64,000 bases of DNA from Armatimonadota bacterium (lineage in GTDB: Bacteria; Armatimonadota; Fimbriimonadia; Fimbriimonadales; GBS-DC): positions 142,676 through 206,675 of the forward strand of contig JBBIML010000008.1 of assembly GCA_037444405.1 (NCBI GenBank). Direction: 5' to 3'. The position numbers were made by a program, and so were the translations under genes. Shown here one piece after another: positions 32,818-55,497 of this stretch (positions are counted from its first letter, which is position 1; each line of letters opens with the position of its first letter). The notes beneath the pieces are model-generated. The model was not told the DNA's origin. It searched no databases and was given only the letters and a program-made list of their open reading frames with translations.

Positions 32818-34071
32818 TTATGAAGATTCCTCAACTGATAGTGCAGGTTTGCCCGCCACATAGACCGTTTGCACGATGGGTGCGCCCAGCGTGTAGGGCA
32901 AGTCGCGCCAGTCGGGGCTGGTCAGCACGAGGAAATCGGCGCGTGCGCCGGGCACCAATGCGCCCCGATCGGTCAGCCCCAGCGCGGACGCCGCGTTGAC
33001 CGTGCCCGCCACCAGCGACTCGGCAGGCGTCAAGCGGTTCAGGCGCACGGCGAGCGCCAGCGCCAGCTGCATCGAGAAGAGCGGGCTGGAGCCAGGGTTC
33101 AAATCGGTGCCGGCGGCGACCGCGGCGCCCGCCTCTATCAGCGCGCGTGCAGGCGCTGGCGGCAAGCCCAGATGCAGGCTCACACCGGGCAGAATCGTGG
33201 CGATGGTCGAACTGTTCGCCAGCGCGCGAATCTGCGTCTCGCCCGACGCCTCCAGATGATCCACCGAGCGCGCACCGAGCCGCACCGCCAGCTCCACACC
33301 GCCCAGCGCATGGAACTGGTCGGCGTGCGCTTTGATGTCCAGCCCGTGCGCCTGCGCGGCTTGCAATATCCGCTCTGCTTCTGCCACGCTGAACGCCTCC
33401 CGCTCGATGAAGATGTCCACCGCTCGCGCCAGTCCGCGACGCGCCACTTCGAGAATGAGCTGGTCGCACACCGTGTGCAGATAGGCGTCGCGCCCCTCGC
33501 GCGGCGGCACATGGATCAGCAAAGTGGGCACAATTGTGGGCGGTGTGATGCCCCGTTGCGCTATCGCTTCGGGCAGGCGGGCAATCGCCTCCAGCATCCG
33601 AATCTCGGCGTCAGGGGTCAGCCCGTAGCCCGACTTGATTTCGAGCGTGGTTGCGCCCGAACGCATCAGTTGAACAACGCGCGGCACGGTCAGCTCAATC
33701 AGCGTTTTGACACTGGCTTGCGCCGTGTGGCGAACGGTGTGATAGATGCCGCCCCCGCGCGCCAAGATGGTTTCATAGGGCACGCCCTGCGCCCGCGCCT
33801 CAAAATCGTCCAGCCGGTCGCCTGCCCACATCGCGTGCGTGTGGGGGTCGATCAATCCGGGCACGACGGCGCGCCCATCCAGATCGATAATCTGGCGGGC
33901 GCGTCCATGCCACTCCCTGCGTGCATCCGCCCACACGATGCGCCCTGCCCGTGATGCGAGGGCGGCGTCGGGGATGACCTGCACCTGCGCCATCTCCGCG
34001 CCCCGATGCACGCCCAATCGCAGCGGCGTCGCCAACTGCGCAATGTTCACAAACAGCTGATCGGCTTCCAT
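32818..34071 (-). CDS. hutI: Imidazolonepropionase
   Basis: PGLIDPHTH, GGGIY.TV, EIKSGYGL, HADQ, SVDHLE and TDLNPGSSP motifs. Confidence 0.96.
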   Translation of the reverse strand: MEADQLFVNIAQLATPLRLGVHRGAEMAQVQVIPDAALASRAGRIVWADARREWHGRARQIIDLDGRAVVPGLIDPHTHAMWAGDRLDDFEARAQGVPYETILARGGGIYHTVRHTAQASVKTLIELTVPRVVQLMRSGATTLEIKSGYGLTPDAEIRMLEAIARLPEAIAQRGITPPTIVPTLLIHVPPREGRDAYLHTVCDQLILEVARRGLARAVDIFIEREAFSVAEAERILQAAQAHGLDIKAHADQFHALGGVELAVRLGARSVDHLEASGETQIRALANSSTIATILPGVSLHLGLPPAPARALIEAGAAVAAGTDLNPGSSPLFSMQLALALAVRLNRLTPAESLVAGTVNAASALGLTDRGALVPGARADFLVLTSPDWRDLPYTLGAPIVQTVYVAGKPALSVEESS

Positions 34072-34186
34072 CTGCGCCTATAACCGTTTGTGGCACTTCC
34101 GGTGGTGTTGCGCCCCTGCCCACCAGTATTACCACGCCCTGCCGCACAACAGAGAGAATACCCTCAAGGGGTATACTTCTGCTGCT

Positions 34187-36034
34187 ATGGGCACTGTTCG
34201 CACGGACACGGATGTTCAGATGGAGGTCTACTATCGCCCCCATCGCTCCAGTCGGGCGATTCTGGAGCCTGAGCCGCCGCTGAGCGAGCTGGGGGGCACT
34301 TTCTGGGTGATTTTGCACAATCGGCGACGCCAGCCTTGCAATGTGAGCGCGATTTTGATTAATGGTGTGCCCGCCGAATCGCTGACCAACGGCAACGGGC
34401 TGAACTGGTTCCGCCTCACGCCGGAGCCGCTGCCGCCTGATGGCGCCGCGTTGCTGATTCTGAACATGCAGGCGTCGCTGCTGCGTCGGTCGCCGCTGCG
34501 TCTGAGCCTGTGGCTGGCGGACGGCGCACGCCACGAATGGGTACTGCCCACCGATTCGTCGCCGCTGACGCTCGCCAGCGCGTGGCTGGACGGGCGCGCG
34601 TTGACGGTGGTGGTGCGCAACGACGACCCGCAACGCGCATGGCGCATCGAGCGACTGCGCGTGGACGGCAGATCCGTGCGCTTCCGAACGCCCGATGCCA
34701 CCCTCGCGCCCCGCACGCTCACTTTCGTCCATGCCCGACTGCCCCACACACCTGAACCCCCTACAAGCCTCATCCTGCAGGTCGATGCGCGCGCGGGCGC
34801 GGCGACCACCATGACGGCAGGCACGGTGCGACCCTTGCCCCGCTTCTTCCCGATAGGCACATGGCGGGATTCCGCATGGGGCGACGAAACGCTGATGCGC
34901 GAGCTGGTTGAGCGCGGCTTCGACACCTTCGTGTTCAGCGCGTCGGATAAACCGAACGACACAGAGCGGCGTGCTTTCGAGCAGATATGTCCGCAATCGG
35001 GTGTCAGGGCGCTGGTGTTTGCGGGCTTCCCGCGCCCCACCGCGCGCTTTATCGAACGCCACGCCCGCAACCCCCACATCGCGGCTTATATGATCAAGGA
35101 TGAACCCGACTGGACTTCGCCGCGCGAGGTGGACGGCTGGCATCTGCCCACGCTGTGCGAACGGATTGCTCAGTTCATTCGGGATCGGCAGGTGGCGCCG
35201 CCGCTCTATCTCAATCTGGCGCGTTCGCGTCGGTTCGGCGAGTTCGCCACCATCCCCGACATCGCCTGCTACGACGCCTATCGCGTCGGCGCGCCGATGC
35301 CCGATTTGTCGCCCGAGCCGTGGGGCAATCGGCTGGAGCTGACGGCGACCTACACAGAGGATTTGCGAGCGAACTGCGAGCCGCTGCCCTTCTGGGTGTG
35401 GGCGCAGGGAGCGCACGCATGGGACGAGCGCATCTGGATCGATGGACAGATCGGGCGGGCATGCCCCACCCCTGAAGAGATTCGGGTTCAGCTCTGGCTC
35501 CAGCTGAGCCGCGGCGCGAAGGGCGTCCTGTGGTTCACCACCTTCCGCGAAGAGGAGTTCCGCCGCCACTACAGCGCGAACCCCACCCTGCAGCGCCTGC
35601 CCGAAGCGGAGCGCCAGCGCGCGATGGAGCAACTGGTCGCGCATGGACGCGAGGCATACGCGGAGCAGACGCGCCTGAACCGCTTTTTGCAGACTGTACG
35701 CGACCGCCTGCTGCGCATGGAGTGGGCAGGCAACGCGACGATTGAGCAGGCGAGCAACCCGACACGACTGGACGCCTCACTTCTGCTGGGCGAGCGTGAA
35801 GCCGTGCTGTGGCTGACCAATCTGGACTACGAGATGCACCCGCAGGGGTATCGGTTCCGCGAACAGCGCGCTATACGGGTGCTGGTGCCGTTGCCACGCT
35901 GGTTCAAGCCGCGCCGTGCGCAGTTTCGTGACCCTGCCAGCGAGCGCGAAATCGAGTTTCAGCCCGTGCCTGAAGGCGTGCGCATCGCGCTGGACGCCCT
36001 GCCCGAACAGGTGGGCAGTCTCTGGCTGGAGTGA
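34187..36034 (+). CDS. Hypothetical protein with a C-terminal glycoside-hydrolase-like TIM barrel
   Basis: Long ORF; FFPIG, AYMIKDEPD, D..CYDAY, PFWVWAQ, PTPEEIR and GAKGVLWF motifs. Confidence 0.6.
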   Translation: MGTVRTDTDVQMEVYYRPHRSSRAILEPEPPLSELGGTFWVILHNRRRQPCNVSAILINGVPAESLTNGNGLNWFRLTPEPLPPDGAALLILNMQASLLRRSPLRLSLWLADGARHEWVLPTDSSPLTLASAWLDGRALTVVVRNDDPQRAWRIERLRVDGRSVRFRTPDATLAPRTLTFVHARLPHTPEPPTSLILQVDARAGAATTMTAGTVRPLPRFFPIGTWRDSAWGDETLMRELVERGFDTFVFSASDKPNDTERRAFEQICPQSGVRALVFAGFPRPTARFIERHARNPHIAAYMIKDEPDWTSPREVDGWHLPTLCERIAQFIRDRQVAPPLYLNLARSRRFGEFATIPDIACYDAYRVGAPMPDLSPEPWGNRLELTATYTEDLRANCEPLPFWVWAQGAHAWDERIWIDGQIGRACPTPEEIRVQLWLQLSRGAKGVLWFTTFREEEFRRHYSANPTLQRLPEAERQRAMEQLVAHGREAYAEQTRLNRFLQTVRDRLLRMEWAGNATIEQASNPTRLDASLLLGEREAVLWLTNLDYEMHPQGYRFREQRAIRVLVPLPRWFKPRRAQFRDPASEREIEFQPVPEGVRIALDALPEQVGSLWLE

Positions 36035-36043
36035 ACCCGACGC

Positions 36044-36388
36044 TTAGCCTGGCGGCCAGGTCATCTGGCGACCGCCCAGCAGATGAAAATGCAGGTGGAA
36101 CACCGACTGCCCCGCGGCGCGGTTCGTGTTCAACACCACGCGATAGCCCTCCGTCTCGATGCCCTCCTGGCGGGCAAGCTGAGCGCACACTTCCAGCAGA
36201 TGCCCCAGCAGCGGCGCATGATCGGGCTGGGACTGCGCCAGGCTCGGAATGTGCGCGCGGGGCACCACCAGCACATGCACGGGCGCCTGCGGGTTAATGT
36301 CCCGAAAGGCGACCGCATGCTCGTCTTCATAGATGATATTGGCAGGTATCTCCCGCGCCACGATTTTGCAAAACAGGCATTCACTCAT
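36044..36388 (-). CDS. HIT family nucleotide-binding protein
   Basis: CLFCKI, AFRDINPQAP.H and GQSVFHLHFHLLGG motifs. Confidence 0.96.
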   Translation of the reverse strand: MSECLFCKIVAREIPANIIYEDEHAVAFRDINPQAPVHVLVVPRAHIPSLAQSQPDHAPLLGHLLEVCAQLARQEGIETEGYRVVLNTNRAAGQSVFHLHFHLLGGRQMTWPPG

Positions 36389-37127
36389 GGTGGCTCTCCT
36401 CCTTCAGGTGGGTCAGGCGCACGCCCGTCAGCAGCTCCCGCAGCTTCTGCAGCACCTCCTGCTCCATCTGGCGCACCTCGTCGACCTTGAGCGAGAACAT
36501 CTCGGCGACCTCTTCGTGCGTATGCACGCGCTCGCCATGCAGCCCATACAGGAGCTTGATGAGCGCGCGTTCAGCAGGCAGCAGGGTCGCCAGCGCGCTC
36601 TCTAACTGCTTGCCGTCAACGCTCAGCGGGTCCAGCGCCTCGGCTTGCGCGGCGAGCGTGGCTTTCTGACGCTTCTCCCGCTCGTGCCACATGCGCACCA
36701 CGCCCTCCACCTGCCGATAGTTAACTGTCTCCACATAGTAGCCCTCCGCCCAGAAACTGCGCTTGCCGATACGCCGTTCCAGACGCGGCAACGCTTCAAA
36801 CAGGCGGTGCGCTGTACCGCGCTTGATATTGCCCACCAAATCGGTCAGCGCCACCGTCGGCTTATAACTAACCAGCAGATGCACCTGGTTCGGCTTTAGA
36901 TAGTAGGCGACGAGCTGATACTCATATTGCTGGCAGACCTCCCGCAGCGCATGGATGAAGGCGGGGATAACCTCCTCATCTAACAGCGGCTGACGGGCGC
37001 GAGTGTAGAAAGTCGCGAGGCAATACAAACGGTAGGCGCTCGATCCACTGGTGTGGACCTGCTCATAAGGCGACCCCGTAGTCTGTCGTGCTGGTGAACC
37101 AGCCGTCTGTTCGCGTTGTGCCGGCAT
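36381..37127 (-). CDS. Catalytically altered IS200/IS605 TnpA (Y1) domain fused to sigma70 region 4
   Basis: N-terminal PNQVHLLVS..P...LVGNIK...FWAEGYYVETV (TnpA fold). C-terminal LATLLPAERALIKLLYGL...THEEVAEMF...VRQMEQEVLQKLR (sigma region 4). Confidence 0.8.
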   Translation of the reverse strand: MPAQREQTAGSPARQTTGSPYEQVHTSGSSAYRLYCLATFYTRARQPLLDEEVIPAFIHALREVCQQYEYQLVAYYLKPNQVHLLVSYKPTVALTDLVGNIKRGTAHRLFEALPRLERRIGKRSFWAEGYYVETVNYRQVEGVVRMWHEREKRQKATLAAQAEALDPLSVDGKQLESALATLLPAERALIKLLYGLHGERVHTHEEVAEMFSLKVDEVRQMEQEVLQKLRELLTGVRLTHLKEESHHE

Positions 37128-37229
37128 TCCTTCCACGCCTCCACACAAAAAGCCCTGTACAGCCTATCTTCCATAGTATACCCCACTTCTTGCGCTCCTT
37201 CCTGCCTGCACAGGTAAAATTCCTGTGAA

Positions 37230-38603
37230 ATGGGCGCACCGAAACGACCAGTGCTGGCGATTGTGGGACGACCGAATGTGGGCAAATCGACGCTTTTTAA
37301 TCGCCTGCTGGGTCGGCGGGTGGCAATTGTGGAGGCGATACCGGGCGTGACGCGCGACCGCCTGTATGGTGAAGCCGAGTGGCAGGCTCGCCCCTTTACC
37401 GTAATCGACACGGGCGGAATCCTGTTCGGTGCGGACGACCCGCTGCTGGAGCAGGTGCGCGTGCAGGCGCAAATCGCCATCCACGAAGCCGACTGCGTGC
37501 TGTTTCTGGTGGACGCCCGCGAGGGGCTGAACCCCGTCGATGAAGAGATTGCCAATCTCCTGCGCCGCAGCGGCAAGCCTGTGCTGCTGCTGGTAAACAA
37601 AGCTGATAACCCTGCACGCTGGGAAGCCCAGCGCGCCGAGTTCTTCCGACTGGGGCTGGGCGAGCCTATCCCCATCTCCGCCATTCACGGACATAACTTG
37701 GCCGAAGTGCTGGAAGAAGCCTTCCAGCGCATCGAGGCGGACGCCGCACCCGAAGCGGAGGAAGAGGCTCTTGAGCCGCTCCGACTGGCGATTGTGGGTC
37801 GACCGAATGTGGGCAAATCGTCGCTGCTGAACGCGATCCTGAACGAGCCGCGCGCGATTGTGAGTGAGAAGGCGGGCACCACACGCGACGCGCTGGACAC
37901 ACCCTTCACCTGGAACGGTCAGCCGATGGTGCTGATCGACACGGCGGGCATCCGTCGCCCCGGTCAGGTGCAGGGTTCGCTGGACTATTATGCGCAGTTG
38001 CGAGCGGAGCGCGCCCTGCAGCGCGCCGATGTCGCGCTGGTGGTCATCGACGCGAAAGAGGGGCTGACCCATCGCGACCGCCGAATCGCCCAGCTCGCCA
38101 TCGACGCTGGACGCGCCTGCGTCTGGGTCGCCAACAAGTGGGACCTGGTGGAGCCGCCCGACGGTCAACTCGCCCAAAATACGCCCGCCAAACGCGACTT
38201 CATCCGACTGGTTCGGCAGAGCGCGCCCGCGCTCGATTTTGTGCCCCTCCAGTTCGTGTCGGCGCTCCATCAGGTGGGCATCGAACCACTGCTGAAAACC
38301 GCCCTGCAGGTCGCCGAGTTCCACAGCATGCGTGTCTCAACGGGCGAACTCAATCGGCTCATTCACGACGCGCTCTATGAGCGACCCTACTCGCGCAAGG
38401 GCAAGCCGCTTAAGATTTACTACGCCACGATGGCAGAGGTGCGCCCGCCCACGATTGTGCTGTTCGTGAACGACCCCGAAATTGTCCACTTCTCGTACCT
38501 GCGCTATCTGGAGAATCGGCTCCGCGAGCGATATGCCTACACGGGCACGCCCATCCGCTGGGTGGTGCGCCCCGCCCACAAGGAGCCAGAATCAACCACC
38601 TGA
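37230..38603 (+). CDS. der: Ribosome biogenesis GTPase Der (EngA)
   Basis: Two GRPNVGKS domains, DTGG/DTAG, NKAD/NKWD and a KH-like C-terminus. Confidence 0.98.
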   Translation: MGAPKRPVLAIVGRPNVGKSTLFNRLLGRRVAIVEAIPGVTRDRLYGEAEWQARPFTVIDTGGILFGADDPLLEQVRVQAQIAIHEADCVLFLVDAREGLNPVDEEIANLLRRSGKPVLLLVNKADNPARWEAQRAEFFRLGLGEPIPISAIHGHNLAEVLEEAFQRIEADAAPEAEEEALEPLRLAIVGRPNVGKSSLLNAILNEPRAIVSEKAGTTRDALDTPFTWNGQPMVLIDTAGIRRPGQVQGSLDYYAQLRAERALQRADVALVVIDAKEGLTHRDRRIAQLAIDAGRACVWVANKWDLVEPPDGQLAQNTPAKRDFIRLVRQSAPALDFVPLQFVSALHQVGIEPLLKTALQVAEFHSMRVSTGELNRLIHDALYERPYSRKGKPLKIYYATMAEVRPPTIVLFVNDPEIVHFSYLRYLENRLRERYAYTGTPIRWVVRPAHKEPESTT

Positions 38604-38629
38604 AACCAATAAGAGCCACGCGCCGAATC

Positions 38630-38657
38630 GTAGGGGTGCGGTCACCGCGCCCCCTAC
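38630..38657. repeat. REP-like palindrome
   Basis: GTAGGGGTGCGG-TCA-CCGCGCCCCCTAC. Confidence 0.65.
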
Positions 38658-38695
38658 AGGGACCCCCCTGAAACCCTTTGAGTATAATAAGGGCT

Positions 38696-39481
38696 ATGCG
38701 ACTGCTTGGGTGGTTGCTTGCAGGGGCGCTGATTCTCGGCGGGTGCCAGCGGGCAGATGAGCGGCAGGCGGCGGAACGCTGGCTCAAAGAAGGCGAGAAG
38801 AAGCTGCAGGCGCGCGATTACGCCGGCGCCGCCGAAGCCTTTACCCGCTATGTGAATGAACGCAATAATCTAACCGCCGCGCTCCCGGAGGTCTATCGCG
38901 CCTATGTGCGCCAGCGTGCCTTCGAACCTGCCTATGAGTTTCTGGTGCAGTACGAGCCGCGCGCCAACGAGATTAAGGTCACGGTCGACCGCTCCGACTA
39001 CTATCGTGTGCTGGGCAATCTGGCGTATCAGACAGGTAAAGTGGACGAGGCGTTCCGCTGGTACGAAAAAGCCATCCAGCTCAACAATCAGAACCACGAG
39101 GCATTCAACAACTACGCTTATGCGCTGGCGGAGCAGGGTAAAGAGCTGGAGCGCGCCCTTGAGTTAGTGAACCATGCGCTGGCGCTGCGCCCCAGCGCGG
39201 GCACCTATTACGACACGCGCGGCTGGATTTATTACAAGCTGGGGCGGTACGAGGAGGCGTTGAAAGATTTGCGTCTGGCGGTGGACACCGCACCTCAAAC
39301 CGCTGAACTGCGCTATCACCTGGCAGCCATCTATGCGAAGCTGGGTCGGAAGCAGGACGCGCTGGTCGAACTCGAAAAGGCGCTCGCGCTGGACCCCAGC
39401 TACCAGCCAGCACGCGAGCTCCAGCAGTCGCTTCAGGGCGCAAAGTCCGAACCGTCCAGCAGCCACTCCGCTGCCCGATAA
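38696..39481 (+). CDS. TPR-repeat lipoprotein
   Basis: Lipobox LGGC; NNYAYALA and DTRGWIYYKLG TPR motifs. Confidence 0.9.
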   Translation: MRLLGWLLAGALILGGCQRADERQAAERWLKEGEKKLQARDYAGAAEAFTRYVNERNNLTAALPEVYRAYVRQRAFEPAYEFLVQYEPRANEIKVTVDRSDYYRVLGNLAYQTGKVDEAFRWYEKAIQLNNQNHEAFNNYAYALAEQGKELERALELVNHALALRPSAGTYYDTRGWIYYKLGRYEEALKDLRLAVDTAPQTAELRYHLAAIYAKLGRKQDALVELEKALALDPSYQPARELQQSLQGAKSEPSSSHSAAR

Positions 39482-39649
39482 AACCGTTCGCAATTATCCG
39501 TCCACGAAGGATAATATACCCTTTTTTGTCCTTCGCGGAAGGATAAATCCAGCGAAGCAGGTGGGGAACCCCCCACATGACGGCTGATCGAAACAGGACT
39601 GGGCCGCTGCCCTCAGCCCGGCGAGGGTTCCCCCTCAGGCGCACCTCCC

Positions 39650-39841
39650 CTATTTGCCGCCGTACTTCTTATAGGTCGCCTCGTCCACGAACTTGGTCAG
39701 CTTGCGCCCGTTGTACTCGGCTTTCAGGGCGTAGCGCACCTGCTTCTTGCCGGACTTGGTGGTCCGCTCATACTTGACCGCCTTCACCTGATTGTCCGGC
39801 ACATCAATCATCTTGCGGTCCTTCACGCTGAAGAACTGCAT
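39650..39841 (-). CDS. Small basic protein (63 aa), possibly DNA-binding
   Basis: AAGGAGGGAGG RBS, highly biased codons, 13 Lys and 4 Arg. Confidence 0.8.
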   Translation of the reverse strand: MQFFSVKDRKMIDVPDNQVKAVKYERTTKSGKKQVRYALKAEYNGRKLTKFVDEATYKKYGGK

Positions 39842-39975
39842 AGAGCCTCCCTCCTTACTGGTTGGATTACAGACAGGTTCACCTGCCTGCGTCGACTCTA
39901 TTCTACACCATCCTGCACGATTCCTGCTTTTTTCAGGGGGGAATTCGGGTCAAAATCGCCTGAAAAAGGGGCATT

Positions 39976-42966
39976 TCACCATCGAATCAGTACGGGTTCG
40001 AGCGGCTGGAGGGTGAGTTGCCCATCGATGCGCTCGCCCGTGAGGAGGTTGGTGGCGCGGATAGGCTGCTCCTTATCGTTGACAAGGCGGACGGTGATGG
40101 GTTTGCGGGTGTAGTTGCAGAGGCTGGCGATGAAGCCGCCCTGATAGGGCGCGCTGCGATAGGCAACGCCCCACGCCGGCTGACCCTCACGATCCAGCAG
40201 GCGCAACGGACGATTGATGCCCCACTCGTTCAGCAGGCGATTCAGGCGCATGTGCAGCAGGCGGGCGTCCAGCAGCGGGTCGCGATCGATGGTCTGGATG
40301 GGCAGGCGCGAAGTGCGCGGGCGACCGTAGCGGTCAAAGCGCAGAATCGGCTCGCCCAGCCCGGCGAACGCGCCACCCCGCTGACGATAGCTGTCCAGCG
40401 CCGCCAGCGCCGAATCGGAAATATACTGTACTGCTGGCAGCACGATGCGCTTGCCCTCGGATGGCAGTTCGCGTGCCGCCGCCTGACGCTCGGTGATAAA
40501 CCCGACGCGCACGCCCAGCATCGTCAGCGCGATATAGAGATTGTTGCGAGCCACCACCGCATCGGCGCCCTGCAACACCAGATCCAGCGGCGAGTGATAC
40601 AGATAGAGATCAGGCGGCTGGTTCTGCAGCGCGGCAATATAGGGCGCGAAGCGGTTCAGATCGAGCGCGGTGTGCGCCAGCGATTCGATCAGTGCAGGGC
40701 GATGGAGCAGGCTGCCCGCGAAATCGCTGGTGGGGTCATCGGTGCGCTCCCACACCCAGAAGGTGGTCGCTGATAGCCCGTGCAGCGCCGCCTCCCACAG
40801 CGCGGCGCGCCCATGCGTGGGTGGCACCACCCGCTGCTCCCGATCCGGGATAATGTGGTTCTCCGAGTTGAAAATGGGCGCGTCGCGCAGGGAGCGCTGC
40901 AGGTCGTGCGCCATCAGCGTGCCCACCCAGTCGAACGCCCACTGCGCATCGGGCGCATGCAGATAGTAGAGGCTGGCGTCGTTGCCGTTCAGCTCGCAGA
41001 ACGGCGCAAATAGCTCGGGATCGATACCTGCCCGCTGCTCCCGATCGCTCAGAAACAGCCAGCTCATCAGCTTGGCATGCACGGGCATATTCGGCAGGTC
41101 GCGTTTGACCGCCTGCGCCAGCGCACGATGCCAGCTTGCCATCCACTCCTGATTGAACTCGCAGAACTCGGCATAGGGCGCACCTTCGGTCGGGATGGGA
41201 ATCTCCTCCCAGCTCTGATAGTTCGTCTGCCAGCGGGTGTTGAGCGTGATGAGCGTCTTATGGCGGTTGCGCAGCCATTCGCGCCACTCCTTCAGCTGGA
41301 AGGGCGACTGCGGGTCTTCAATATTCACCGGTTCGTTGGAGAGGCAGATGCTGTTGAGCGCAGGCTGATTGCGCAGGTAGGGGGCGAAGCGGGCAATATA
41401 GTCGCGCAGCAGGCGCAGGCTCTGCGGGGCGAAGGTGCTGTATTGAATGAAGCCCTCACGCGGCTGGCGCAGCTCCGGATACTCCTGCAACACCCAGTCG
41501 GGCATATAGTGGGGGCTGATGAGCAAATCAACGCGCACATTCGCCTGCGCCGCGCGACGCAGCACGGGCAGGATATCGTTCTCCAGCTTCTGCAGGCTGA
41601 CCTCGCCCTTGTGCGGAAAGATGTCCCGCACGCCCATCTCGATCTGGATGAGATTGAAGCCCATGCGGGGGAGCTTTTCCAGGTCTTCACGCACTTTGCC
41701 GAAGTGTCCGAATCCGACGAAGAACACGGGGCGTCGCTCGCGCCGTCCTGTAAGCGGGTCGATCGTGTCGGCAATCAGCGAGGCGCCGTTGATGTCCACG
41801 CGCGAGGTTATATAGCGGGGCACGGTGGGCAGGCGCCGCCTGCCGTTCAGCACCTCCTGAAGCGTGGTATCCAGCCGTTGCGCCATCGGCTCCATCTCGT
41901 CCAGCTGCTGGAAGGCGCGCGGTAGCAGCCCTTTCTGCAAATCGTCAGCCACATAGCGCACGAACTCCTGCAGGATGGTGAAGCTGGCGAGCGGGTAGGC
42001 GATATCCTGCCCGCGCTGGCGAACGGCGTTGAGCTGAGTCTGCCAGCGGGGTAGCGACTGGCGAATGGCGTCCAGTCGCTGTTGCGCTTCGCGGCGAGTG
42101 AAGAAGCGCAGCGGTCGGCTCGCTTCGACGGTGGGCTTGTCGGGCGCACTGATGCGAACCTGCAGGCGCTGGTCGCGGGTGGGCGGCTCACCGAACTGAA
42201 ACACGGCGCGCACCATGCCGGCTGGCAAATCGGCTTGCTGTTCCACGCGCTGCTCGCCCAGTTGCACCTCCACGCGCACGCCCTGTGCCGCCGACGGCAG
42301 GTAGAACTCCACCGCCCCACGCCATACAGGGTCTGCCAGATAAACGGAATCGGGCAAATCGGCGAGCGTCAGCAGGGGGCGGTCGGGTGTTTCCGCGGGC
42401 ACGAACGCGCTCATCTCGCGCCCCGCTTCAAGTTTCAGATCGTCAATATACAGTCCTTCGGTGGGCGCCTCGATGGTGATGACCAGCTCGAAGTTGGTCT
42501 CGTCGCTGGCGGTGGCGAAGGTGATCGATGCCCGCTTCCATTGCCCGCCTGTGTCTTCGAAGGGCAATCGCACGCGCCAGTTCCTACCGCCGCCCACGAA
42601 GCCGAGATAGCTTCCCTGCGCCCTGTAGCGCACGCTCAGCGTGTAGATGCTATCGGGCTGCACGGGCACGCCACCCTCATAGCGCAATAAGCCGTACACA
42701 TTGGAGCCGAACGGGGTCGTGCTGGTCAGCTTCAGGCAGCGCGCGCCCGTCGCCGCGTCGCCCTCCACGACGGTCAGGGTCGCATCGGTGTTGCGTTTGT
42801 CCCATTGCCAGCCGACGGGCAAGCCGTTCTGAACCTGTTCAAAGCTGCCGTTGCGTATCAGGTTGGGGCGAACGGGTGTGGAAATGGGGATCAGTTGCAG
42901 GCTATTCTGGGCATGAGCGGCGCCCATCAGCAGAAACAGAATCAGCCCTCCTGTCAGCCTCCGCAT
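39976..42966 (-). CDS. Secreted CBM4/9-like plus GH42-like (beta-galactosidase) protein
   Basis: Signal peptide; NLIRNGSFE..P.GW, YIDDLKL, HYMPDW, LSNEP, LNTRWQTNY.SW and FNSENH motifs. Confidence 0.75.
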   Translation of the reverse strand: MRRLTGGLILFLLMGAAHAQNSLQLIPISTPVRPNLIRNGSFEQVQNGLPVGWQWDKRNTDATLTVVEGDAATGARCLKLTSTTPFGSNVYGLLRYEGGVPVQPDSIYTLSVRYRAQGSYLGFVGGGRNWRVRLPFEDTGGQWKRASITFATASDETNFELVITIEAPTEGLYIDDLKLEAGREMSAFVPAETPDRPLLTLADLPDSVYLADPVWRGAVEFYLPSAAQGVRVEVQLGEQRVEQQADLPAGMVRAVFQFGEPPTRDQRLQVRISAPDKPTVEASRPLRFFTRREAQQRLDAIRQSLPRWQTQLNAVRQRGQDIAYPLASFTILQEFVRYVADDLQKGLLPRAFQQLDEMEPMAQRLDTTLQEVLNGRRRLPTVPRYITSRVDINGASLIADTIDPLTGRRERRPVFFVGFGHFGKVREDLEKLPRMGFNLIQIEMGVRDIFPHKGEVSLQKLENDILPVLRRAAQANVRVDLLISPHYMPDWVLQEYPELRQPREGFIQYSTFAPQSLRLLRDYIARFAPYLRNQPALNSICLSNEPVNIEDPQSPFQLKEWREWLRNRHKTLITLNTRWQTNYQSWEEIPIPTEGAPYAEFCEFNQEWMASWHRALAQAVKRDLPNMPVHAKLMSWLFLSDREQRAGIDPELFAPFCELNGNDASLYYLHAPDAQWAFDWVGTLMAHDLQRSLRDAPIFNSENHIIPDREQRVVPPTHGRAALWEAALHGLSATTFWVWERTDDPTSDFAGSLLHRPALIESLAHTALDLNRFAPYIAALQNQPPDLYLYHSPLDLVLQGADAVVARNNLYIALTMLGVRVGFITERQAAARELPSEGKRIVLPAVQYISDSALAALDSYRQRGGAFAGLGEPILRFDRYGRPRTSRLPIQTIDRDPLLDARLLHMRLNRLLNEWGINRPLRLLDREGQPAWGVAYRSAPYQGGFIASLCNYTRKPITVRLVNDKEQPIRATNLLTGERIDGQLTLQPLEPVLIRW

Positions 42967-55134: not shown

Positions 55135-55461
55135 AATAAAAAGAGCCCGAGCGAATCGGTCTGCCCTTTTCGGTTCCGCTTGGCTTGCTGCCGTCCTGCG
55201 GACTCGGTGCCCCGACCGACATTGCTGCCGATCCTGAGGCGCCGCCACTCCACGAGTGAGCAGCAGGCTTCGGGCGGTTCCTATCCGCCGTTCACGCGCG
55301 CCCAACACTGGGGCGCGGGCTGCGCGTGTTGCTCCCTGCGCGGTCTCTCCATCGCCTGCCCGTCGCCGGCGCAACAGGCATCGATGGCTCCGAGCAAGGC
55401 TCCCGACGGCAGGGACACCTGCCTTCGCTCGGGCGACGGTCATCGAGTTTCCCCGATAACC
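55135..55461 (-). ncRNA. Candidate large structured ncRNA of unknown class
   Basis: Sigma70 promoter upstream, a chain of GC hairpins with GAAA and GCAA tetraloops, and a terminal hairpin followed by TTTTTATT; no credible ORF. Confidence 0.65.
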
Positions 55462-55467
55462 GCTCCT

Positions 55468-55497
55468 ATTATACCACACCGATGACGGCTTTGTCAA
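55468..55497 (-). promoter_or_regulatory. Sigma70 promoter of the candidate ncRNA
   Basis: TTGACA-18 nt-TATAAT with extended -10 TGTGG. Confidence 0.8.

Follow-up and report, generated by a model that had tools for sequence, protein, structure and literature searches.

What becomes of a transposase that can no longer cut DNA, once it has been joined to a piece of sigma factor that can no longer read a promoter? The question is raised by a 248-residue gene in a 64,000-nucleotide stretch of the Armatimonadota bacterium assembly GCA_037444405.1 (contig JBBIML010000008.1, positions 142,676 to 206,675, order Fimbriimonadales), referred to here as the window. A preliminary description of this DNA had proposed that the gene encodes a domesticated, catalytically dead TnpA of the IS200/IS605 type fused to a sigma70 region-4 domain, and that the product couples hairpin recognition to recruitment of RNA polymerase. 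The first proposal has stood: the fusion occurs throughout the family and is kept by selection, each domain is recognized by its profile, and neither the catalytic residues nor insertion sequence (IS) ends were found. The second has to be divided. Coupling of hairpin recognition to RNA polymerase is plausible from the residues retained, but a role of the sigma module in recruiting the polymerase through the -35 element is unlikely, because the equivalents of R584, R586 and R562 are replaced in 45 of 45 homologues. The fusion protein is real and conserved, has apparently not been described before, and most likely represents a new kind of transcription regulator.

The two halves of the protein

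Residue counts throughout are drawn from an alignment (A3) of 45 proteins, comprising 43 of the 45 matches of a word-index search (two partial proteins omitted) and two deep members of the family. The features of the gene and its product are as follows.

36381..37127, minus strand: dead TnpA/sigma-4-like fusion gene, 248 aa (P0001); open reading frame, Pfam and orthologues
36705..37034, minus strand: Y1 domain, IS200/IS605 TnpA-type, aa 32-141; Pfam Y1_Tnp, E 3.7e-21
36879..36887, minus strand: dead HUH motif Q81-V82-H83; Q81 in 45/45
36804..36824, minus strand: conserved basic helix alphaC (K102, R103, H107, R108), the helix that binds hairpins in Y1 enzymes; alignment counts
36690..36692, minus strand: M146, register of the catalytic tyrosine; Tyr in 0/45
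36435..36596, minus strand: sigma70 region-4-like domain, aa 178-231; Pfam Sigma70_r4, E 2.6e-8
36468..36488, minus strand: K214-Q220 (KVDEVRQ), the helix that once recognized the -35 element, its charge neutral to acidic; orthologue charges and alignment

The reading frame is intact, and its GC content at third codon positions is host-like (0.76, against a median of 0.77 over 865 long reading frames of the genome), in keeping with the host-like codons first remarked upon. Both Y1_Tnp and Sigma70_r4 exceed their curated Pfam cut-offs, so the profile check upholds the two-domain reading. By NCBIfam the Y1 part is an IS200/IS605 TnpA (79.1 bits, cut-off 55), the repetitive extragenic palindromic (REP) tyrosine transposase model NF047646 reaches 40.1 bits, below its cut-off of 80, and the sigma part lies closest to region 4 of RpoD/SigA. 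Region 4 alone scores with Pfam and NCBIfam; sigma region 2, responsible for core binding and -10 recognition, was not matched, and Pfam searches at E up to 0.1 did not find Bac_DnaA_C, HTH_23 or HTH_28 in the C-terminal tail. An AlphaFold model (mean predicted local distance difference test score 73, predicted template modelling score 0.59; aa 1-30 and 236-248 unresolved) resembles ISDra2 TnpA (Foldseek E 1.2e-9) and Sulfolobus TnpA 2ec2 (Z 15.2, root-mean-square deviation 2.9 across 112 residues), while its sigma-4-like domain superimposes on solved region-4 domains with Z about 10 and deviations of 1.0-1.8. Between the two domains, the linker varies in length by roughly 35-40 residues among deep branches of the family, as would be expected of a tether.

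Judged by its aligned residues, the Y1 domain has lost those that cut and retained the hairpin-binding helix and most dimer residues. The DHVH of active TnpA reads NQVH, as originally noted, with the first HUH histidine replaced by Gln and the preceding Asp lost in all 45 homologues; the second histidine, at position 83, persists in 32, and is otherwise Asn (9), Tyr (2), Gln (1) or Thr (1). The loss of the nucleophile is equally firm, with no tyrosine in any row at the register of M146, and the Gln of the Y---Q motif, four residues after that register, is absent from 44 of 45 and present in one. A single lineage outside the alignment (P0011, P0213) does carry a tyrosine at the catalytic register, yet its HUH motif reads Q-V-N. 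The N-terminal YH of TnpA had been thought to read YC; the motif is indeed changed, but it aligns with C36-L37, so that the histidine became Leu rather than Cys. In IS608 TnpA, the metal ligands and the nucleophile occupy the very positions that are replaced in the fusion protein (PMC5934647, PMC3597680).

What the Y1 domain has kept is just as uniform. K102 and R103 of helix alphaC are present in 45 of 45, H107 in 44 and R108 in 42, and the position of R103 is occupied by Gly in most TnpAs. In an alignment that is weak overall (probability 9%, E 0.004), K102, R103 and H107 fall opposite K81, K82 and H86 of E. coli TnpA-REP, which sit on a helix described as entering the hairpin's minor groove (PMC3479197). 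Elsewhere R43, W126, G129 and Y130 occur in all 45 proteins and an Arg or Lys at position 45 in 44. P90 (44/45) and a Thr or Ser at 134 (45/45) lie where the IS608 dimer residues P73 and T115 are set by PMC3479197, in a register inferred from motif position.

The sigma-4 domain, on the same kind of evidence, retains its fold without the residues that read the -35 element. Using E. coli sigma70 numbering, set on the host SigA via the TRERIRQ motif, the equivalents of R554, R562 and R586, presumably the backbone-binding residues of region 4, are replaced in every protein, R562 by Leu and R586 by Glu (E217) in 45 of 45. The R584 equivalent (position 215) is Pro, Val, Ile, Ala or His and is kept in none, the R588 equivalent (position 219) survives in 13 of 45 amid 11 different residues, and E585 survives in 26; R584, E585 and R588 are the residues reported to set -35 specificity (PMC2613000). 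Over its nine residues the recognition helix has a net charge of 0 to -3 in 21 of 21 orthologues, compared with +1 in host SigA, although K214 (43/45) and Q220 (40/45) are conserved upon it. The hydrophobic core, by contrast, is intact, with G195-L196 present in 45 of 45 and E199 invariant. Both parts of the earlier observation, that TRERIRQ has become KVDEVRQ and that the core is kept, are thus borne out by host SigA and the alignment. Because fold and core are kept while base-reading residues are replaced, selection maintains the region-4 fold and not its DNA-reading face.

Distribution, selection and descent

The fusion belongs to one bacterial family. A word-index search covering lengths of 136-469 aa returned 45 proteins, assigned to Armatimonadota or Fimbriimonadales wherever a taxon was given. 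The titles of the records for 21 genome loci agree, and a cluster of 140 members with the same architecture is present in the ESM Atlas. Full-length matches occur in the source genome and in 22 of 24 same-family genomes, one in each, and in none of 16 genomes from four other families of the order. Taking the Fimbriimonadales family as a whole, 27 of 29 genomes hold the gene, or 28 if G010 is counted, in which the last 20 residues stand at a contig end before the neighbouring gene hit; G015, an 87% complete genome, has neither the fusion gene nor hit. Wherever it is whole, the gene is single-copy. Among 300 other genomes of the phylum there was no full-length match (Y1-only matches in 17), and the 10 matches of a search for phage-borne copies were to Y1 alone, with coverage below 80% in every case. 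When 1.84 billion representatives were searched with a profile and without a length limit, six matches fell below 1e-30: five belonged to the family, as members or fragments, and the sixth was a protein of 1722 aa made of region-4 repeats. The best 150 matches of that search contained no further fusion beyond two family-member fragments and P0075.

The gene is under purifying selection. The ratio of nonsynonymous to synonymous substitution rates (dN/dS), which the preliminary description had expected to fall below 1, has a median of 0.124 (0.03-0.45; Nei-Gojobori, 50 of 210 pairs with dS 0.1-1.2), and both domains share in it, at 0.108 over 43 pairs for Y1 and at 0.153 over 71 pairs for region 4, where the highest value is 0.86. 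Inheritance has been vertical: fusion distances track those of a 920-1060-aa stretch of RpoB across 21 genomes (Mantel r 0.94, 0 of 2000 permutations), and the two trees have in common 10 of 11 strong splits and 11 of 18 overall. In a quick tree of Y1 domains (91 rows, 145 columns, proteins from the best 150 of the profile search, no RAYTs), the fusion proteins form one clade (Shimodaira-Hasegawa-like approximate likelihood ratio support 100) beside 11 intact single-domain TnpAs, a weakly placed neighbourhood (84) that includes P0062, P0076 and P0082 and, in part, proteins whose records are assigned to Poribacteria and Dehalococcoidia. The closest intact TnpAs share only 23-30% identity with the fusion. 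In essence, a single fusion of an IS200/IS605-type TnpA with a group-1-like sigma region 4 took place in the family ancestor; the protein lost every cutting residue as well as its element, and has been handed down vertically ever since, under selection, as one host gene. Of domestication, taken alone, we are very confident.

Several other Y1 and region-4 proteins came to light. A family of tandem Y1-Y1 proteins of about 280 aa (P0053, P0068, P0074, P0078, P0079, P0086, P0115, P0129, P0136, P0183) has a first domain with a dead HUH motif and its tyrosine kept, and a second domain with HUH mostly kept and no tyrosine; its appearance is that of a TnpA "dimer" made as one chain and having a single hybrid active site. 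Descent of the fusion from the HUH-dead first domain of such proteins was considered and rejected: the shared Gln-for-His motif is suggestive, but the tandem domains group separately in the tree. P0075, a singleton on a 1.8-kb contig in which TnpA and RpoD region 4, both intact, are fused, is unrelated to the fusion family and may be an accident, a chimera or an independent fusion, although it illustrates how such a fusion can arise. Y1 domains also stand behind a squalene-cyclase-like domain (P0116, HUH dead), a PilZ domain (P0153, HUH apparently intact) and a membrane GGDEF protein (P0168, HUH dead), and P0050, P0051, P0055 and similar proteins are long Sigma70_r4-repeat proteins with up to 13 matched stretches in 1457 aa.

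The locus and its promoters

The gene lies between two housekeeping genes, with these flanking features.

36044..36388, minus strand: hit, a hydrolase of the HIT family that shares 8 nt with the fusion gene; Pfam HIT, E 9.6e-30
37230..38603, plus strand: der (EngA GTPase), divergent neighbour; Pfam and locus comparison
37138..37142, minus strand: ribosome-binding site GGAGG; 20 of 21 upstream regions have GGAGG or GAGG ahead of the start chosen
37175..37184, minus strand: GGGG-TATACT, SigA-type -10 box in which GTAT is also readable as a SigH-type -10; GGTATACT in 18 of 21 upstream regions
37199..37205, minus strand: GCAGGAA, SigH-type -35 element, 18 nt before TATACT; upstream-region comparison

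The 8-nt overlap with hit and the TATACT box at 37175-37180 are both as first described, while the suggested synteny with hit and der holds only in its first part. hit directly follows the fusion gene in 18 of 20 relative loci, lying elsewhere in G004 and G008, and does not adjoin it in the two deepest members. The fusion gene and hit are probably one operon. der, whose start is 102 nt from that of the fusion gene, is divergent from it in three same-genus loci of the 20 and in no others. Genes upstream vary by genus, and include a dinG-like helicase, a hydrolase, a PEP-CTERM protein, nrdR and a pyrB-like gene; in G008 (L032:5924-10371) nrdR and a class II ribonucleotide reductase that bears an intein are transcribed divergently from the fusion gene. 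On the der side, a -10-like box, GGTAAAAT (window 37212-37232, plus strand), ends 10 nt before the ATG, so der may be nearly leaderless.

As the preliminary description had it, there is no sign of a mobile element: TnpB was not found in the source genome (PF07282, PF01385), nor was a second Y1 protein (Y1_Tnp model), and no IS-end-like hairpin with both arms in the flanks is among the 25 longest of 42 inverted repeats. In G007 (L031:24-123), a genome that also holds an intact-looking TnpA, a GC-rich hairpin, which we take to resemble an IS605-type end, occupies the site of the promoter conserved in other genomes. The source genome itself carries 16 REP-like palindromes with a GTAG foot and 79 CCCTCACCC..CCCTCTCCC stem-loop repeats, and no RAYT was found in it with the Y1_Tnp model. 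REP palindromes as the ligand of the fusion were considered and found unsupported, as carriers have 0-32 GTAG-foot copies and the complete genome G004 has none.

Expression of the fusion gene is probably governed by overlapping SigA- and SigH-type promoters, to judge from the upstream motifs. GC(A/G)GGAA lies at a distance of up to 35 nt in 12 of the 21 upstream regions, 10 of which have it at 16-19 nt, and the GCAGGAA...G(A/T)AT arrangement presumably fits the Bacillus SigH consensus. Of the 328 GCAGGAA(A/T) sites across the source genome, 69 have GAAT or GTAT 16-17 nt further on, and no other offset between 10 and 23 accounts for more than 4; GCAGGAA lies exactly 17 nt from G+TANA[AC]T in 18 of 1098 sites, with a median of 9 per family genome against 0 in others. 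SigH exceeds its NCBIfam cut-off in 25 of 25 family genomes, that of the source included, and in 12 of 16 others. TTGACA-type promoters are also commoner in the family (median 18 against 2), so part of the GCAGGAA enrichment is general. One idea, that region 4 of the fusion reads GCAGGAA as a family-enriched "-35", was set aside: the motif is real, but GAAT follows it just as well, and the simpler SigH reading suffices. In this SigH-type class, GCAGGAA(A/T)-N15/16-G(A/T)AT, several of the 69 sites stand before pilin-like "GFTLIELL" genes and about a fifth read GTATAAT or GTATACT and so overlap a SigA -10; the GAAT form numbers 9-55 in each of the 25 family genomes, and the 16 others have 0-8 apiece.

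Possible modes of action

How might such a protein act? The usual partner of region 4 is the tip helix of the beta-flap of RNA polymerase (PMC3985653, PMC6755090), and the flap tip walls the RNA exit channel, where NusA is also reported to bind (PMC7171158). We tentatively favor, at a little short of even chances, a hairpin-binding dimer tethered to the flap tip, affecting initiation or pausing. The Y1 part would still dimerize and would bind a stem-loop of single-stranded DNA or RNA via its basic helix, and would leave it uncut. Having ceased to read the -35 element, the sigma-4 part would serve as a protein-docking module, its likeliest partner being the flap-tip helix. Linked together, the two would hold a hairpin sensor at the flap and so compete with region 4 of SigA at initiation; alternatively, because the flap walls the exit channel, hairpin formation there could alter pausing or termination, somewhat in the manner of NusA. 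The bolder version, in which a dead TnpA dimer senses hairpins of nascent RNA or unwound DNA while a DNA-blind region 4 parks on the flap to control pausing, termination or sigma-4 exchange genome-wide, we consider rather unlikely.

The flap tip itself varies within the order (L092-L121): the RpoB helix reads TEQ(K/R)LVRIIFG in most of the family, whose two deepest members have AEQRLI(V/I)AIFG, and AEERL(I/V)IAIFG in the sister families. After the helix comes a Cys-rich insertion.

A number of points weigh against a flap-tethered sensor. On the sigma side, the 45 proteins carry Tyr (20) or His (25) at the F563 equivalent; the fusion does not conserve the C-terminal helix with which sigma70 of E. 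coli works at the beta-flap, although host SigA is without it too; and isolated region 4 binds the flap weakly, 4-5-fold more weakly than phage P7 does (PMC3985653). On the Y1 side, the position equivalent to I113 on the IS608 dimer surface is Ala in 31 of 45, and the net charge of the core is a mere 0 to +6. Nor is there a target in view, with no neighbor but hit conserved family-wide over 20 loci, and no conserved hairpin adjoining the gene in its flanks or in 21 upstream regions. Finally, all family-wide traits stem from one branch, so their co-occurrence lends no independent support.

Were the docking partner something other than the flap, the role might instead be post-transcriptional or one of titration. 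The protein would bind structured RNA or single-stranded DNA while its sigma-4 module docks on a ribonucleoprotein or an anti-sigma factor, or acts as a decoy for the activators or phage proteins that usually bind region 4, a reading that we consider unlikely. The Y1 fold does resemble RNA-binding palm and ferredoxin folds (Thg1, Z 8.4; ribosomal S6-like, 7.6), and a stand-alone region-4-like protein exists in UPF0122 (1xsv, Z 8.5), which is linked to the signal recognition particle, although Z values of 7.6-8.5 fall within a range that the tool calls common. The neighbors are housekeeping genes (hit, der, a dinG-like helicase, hisS, nrdR), but they vary between genera. A structured RNA region at window positions 55135-55497, with no Rfam match at threshold, is a possible candidate ligand: a DNA-level search found it only in the family, in 17 of 24 genomes against 0 of 16, yet the same search, of limited sensitivity, did not detect it in the fusion carriers G004, G006, G007, G008, G010, G016 and G021. 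A decoy, for its part, should present a surface that mimics host SigA, and the recognition helix does not.

An ordinary DNA-binding factor, with the dead Y1 domain as dimerization unit and two helix-turn-helix domains reading a new operator, strikes us as improbable. The conservation of K214 and Q220 on the recognition helix would suit it, as would the precedent of subclass 2.1 Y1 proteins, whose C-terminal helix-turn-helix is thought to bind DNA (PMC6006769). Against this, the base-reading positions 215 and 219 are those that vary, the helix is neutral to acidic and has lost its backbone-binding arginines, the linker length is highly variable, and inspection of 21 upstream regions revealed no conserved palindrome.

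The fusion might also be imagined as a guard against IS200/IS605 elements, covering their end hairpins or poisoning TnpA through mixed dimers while the sigma-4 domain damps element transcription, a prospect that is distinctly improbable. Mixed IS608 TnpA dimers with a cis active site only cannot cleave (PMC3597680), high-scoring intact TnpA is found in just 2 of 29 family genomes, and the source genome is without TnpB; however, IS scarcity proves little because metagenome assemblies lose IS elements. G007 and G008 hold intact-looking TnpA alongside the fusion, G007 with its IS605-like end at the usual promoter site, identity to the nearest intact TnpAs is low, and guard genes usually turn over, whereas this gene tracks RpoB. 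That the protein is a residual nuclease or transposase, or a neutral relic, is scarcely credible: database annotation as a transposase, the H83 kept in 32 of 45 and the tyrosine of the P0011 and P0213 lineage speak for it, but that lineage reads Q-V-N at its HUH motif, Q81 is invariant, and the gene is single-copy, with no IS ends found and a dN/dS of 0.12.

When set against the defining features of active TnpA, RAYT, TIRYT, sigma factor and TldR, the fusion falls into none of these classes. It is like TnpA of subclass 1.1 (ISDra2, IS608) in fold, NCBIfam model, W-x-x-Y strand, basic alphaC helix and the Pro and Thr of the dimer, and unlike it in lacking HUH, Tyr and the Gln ligand, and in being single-copy and vertically inherited, with no tnpB or ends found. 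The Y1 classification describes IS200-type TnpAs of subclass 1.1 without additional domains and class 2 proteins with other helix-turn-helix tails, so the extra sigma-4 domain sets the fusion apart (PMC6006769). RAYTs, or TnpA-REP proteins, share its Y1 core, single copy and housekeeping-like inheritance (PMC5581495), and R103 takes the position of K82, the reader of the REP bulge (PMC3479197); RAYTs, however, are described as catalytic and REP-flanked (PMC5581495, PMC3479197), whereas the fusion is dead, falls below the REP-model cut-off and has no REP repeats that we found flanking its gene. TIRYT and TnpA-REP proteins of subclass 2.1 likewise combine a Y1 core with a C-terminal helix-turn-helix, but theirs is a class 2 core with a tail like Bac_DnaA_C, HTH_23 or HTH_28, in place of an IS200-type core with an RpoD-like region 4 (PMC6006769), and no flanking inverted repeat of the TIRYT kind is among the 25 longest of the 42.

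The analogy to TnpB-derived regulators drawn in the preliminary description holds for origin. Like TldR, the nuclease-dead TnpB repressors (PMC10705468), and like dCas12f with sigmaE (PMC12259090), the fusion is a dead IS200/IS605-derived protein in presumed transcription control, kept by its host, as TldR is, without element ends. No guide RNA was found by the fusion gene (no Rfam match in window positions 33000-41000, and just 102 nt intergenic). The TldR and dCas12f proteins are reported to be TnpB-derived and RNA-guided, dCas12f working with a separate, whole sigma factor, whereas the fusion is TnpA-derived with a DNA-blind region 4 built in (PMC10705468, PMC12259090). Its likeness to the beta-flap binders, such as the NusA N-terminal domain, T4 AsiA, Xp10 P7 and the Q antiterminators, lies in the proposed way of working only (PMC7171158, PMC6755090, PMC3985653); it is not homologous to them, and its own flap binding is putative.

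No description of a Y1_Tnp-Sigma70_r4 architecture was found in the literature searched, which excluded supplements, where a table entry could exist; the main text of the Y1 classification paper, for instance, does not mention "sigma" (PMC6006769). Domestication of IS200/IS605 proteins has already been documented for TnpB, in Cas12 and TldR, and for the catalytically intact RAYTs, whose benefit to the host is not yet settled. In the present case, the protein that lost its catalysis and was fixed as the gene of a whole family is a true IS200-type TnpA, and the domain fused to it points to a concrete partner. Both halves bear the same selective pattern, in which fold and one surface are kept and the original activity is removed. 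The range is narrow, confined to one family, and the host is uncultured, but the protein is small and suited to recombinant work. Should it prove to be a hairpin sensor parked at the flap and acting genome-wide, this family would possess a general transcription factor of transposase origin, with no counterpart among the domesticated TnpA and TnpB proteins described so far.

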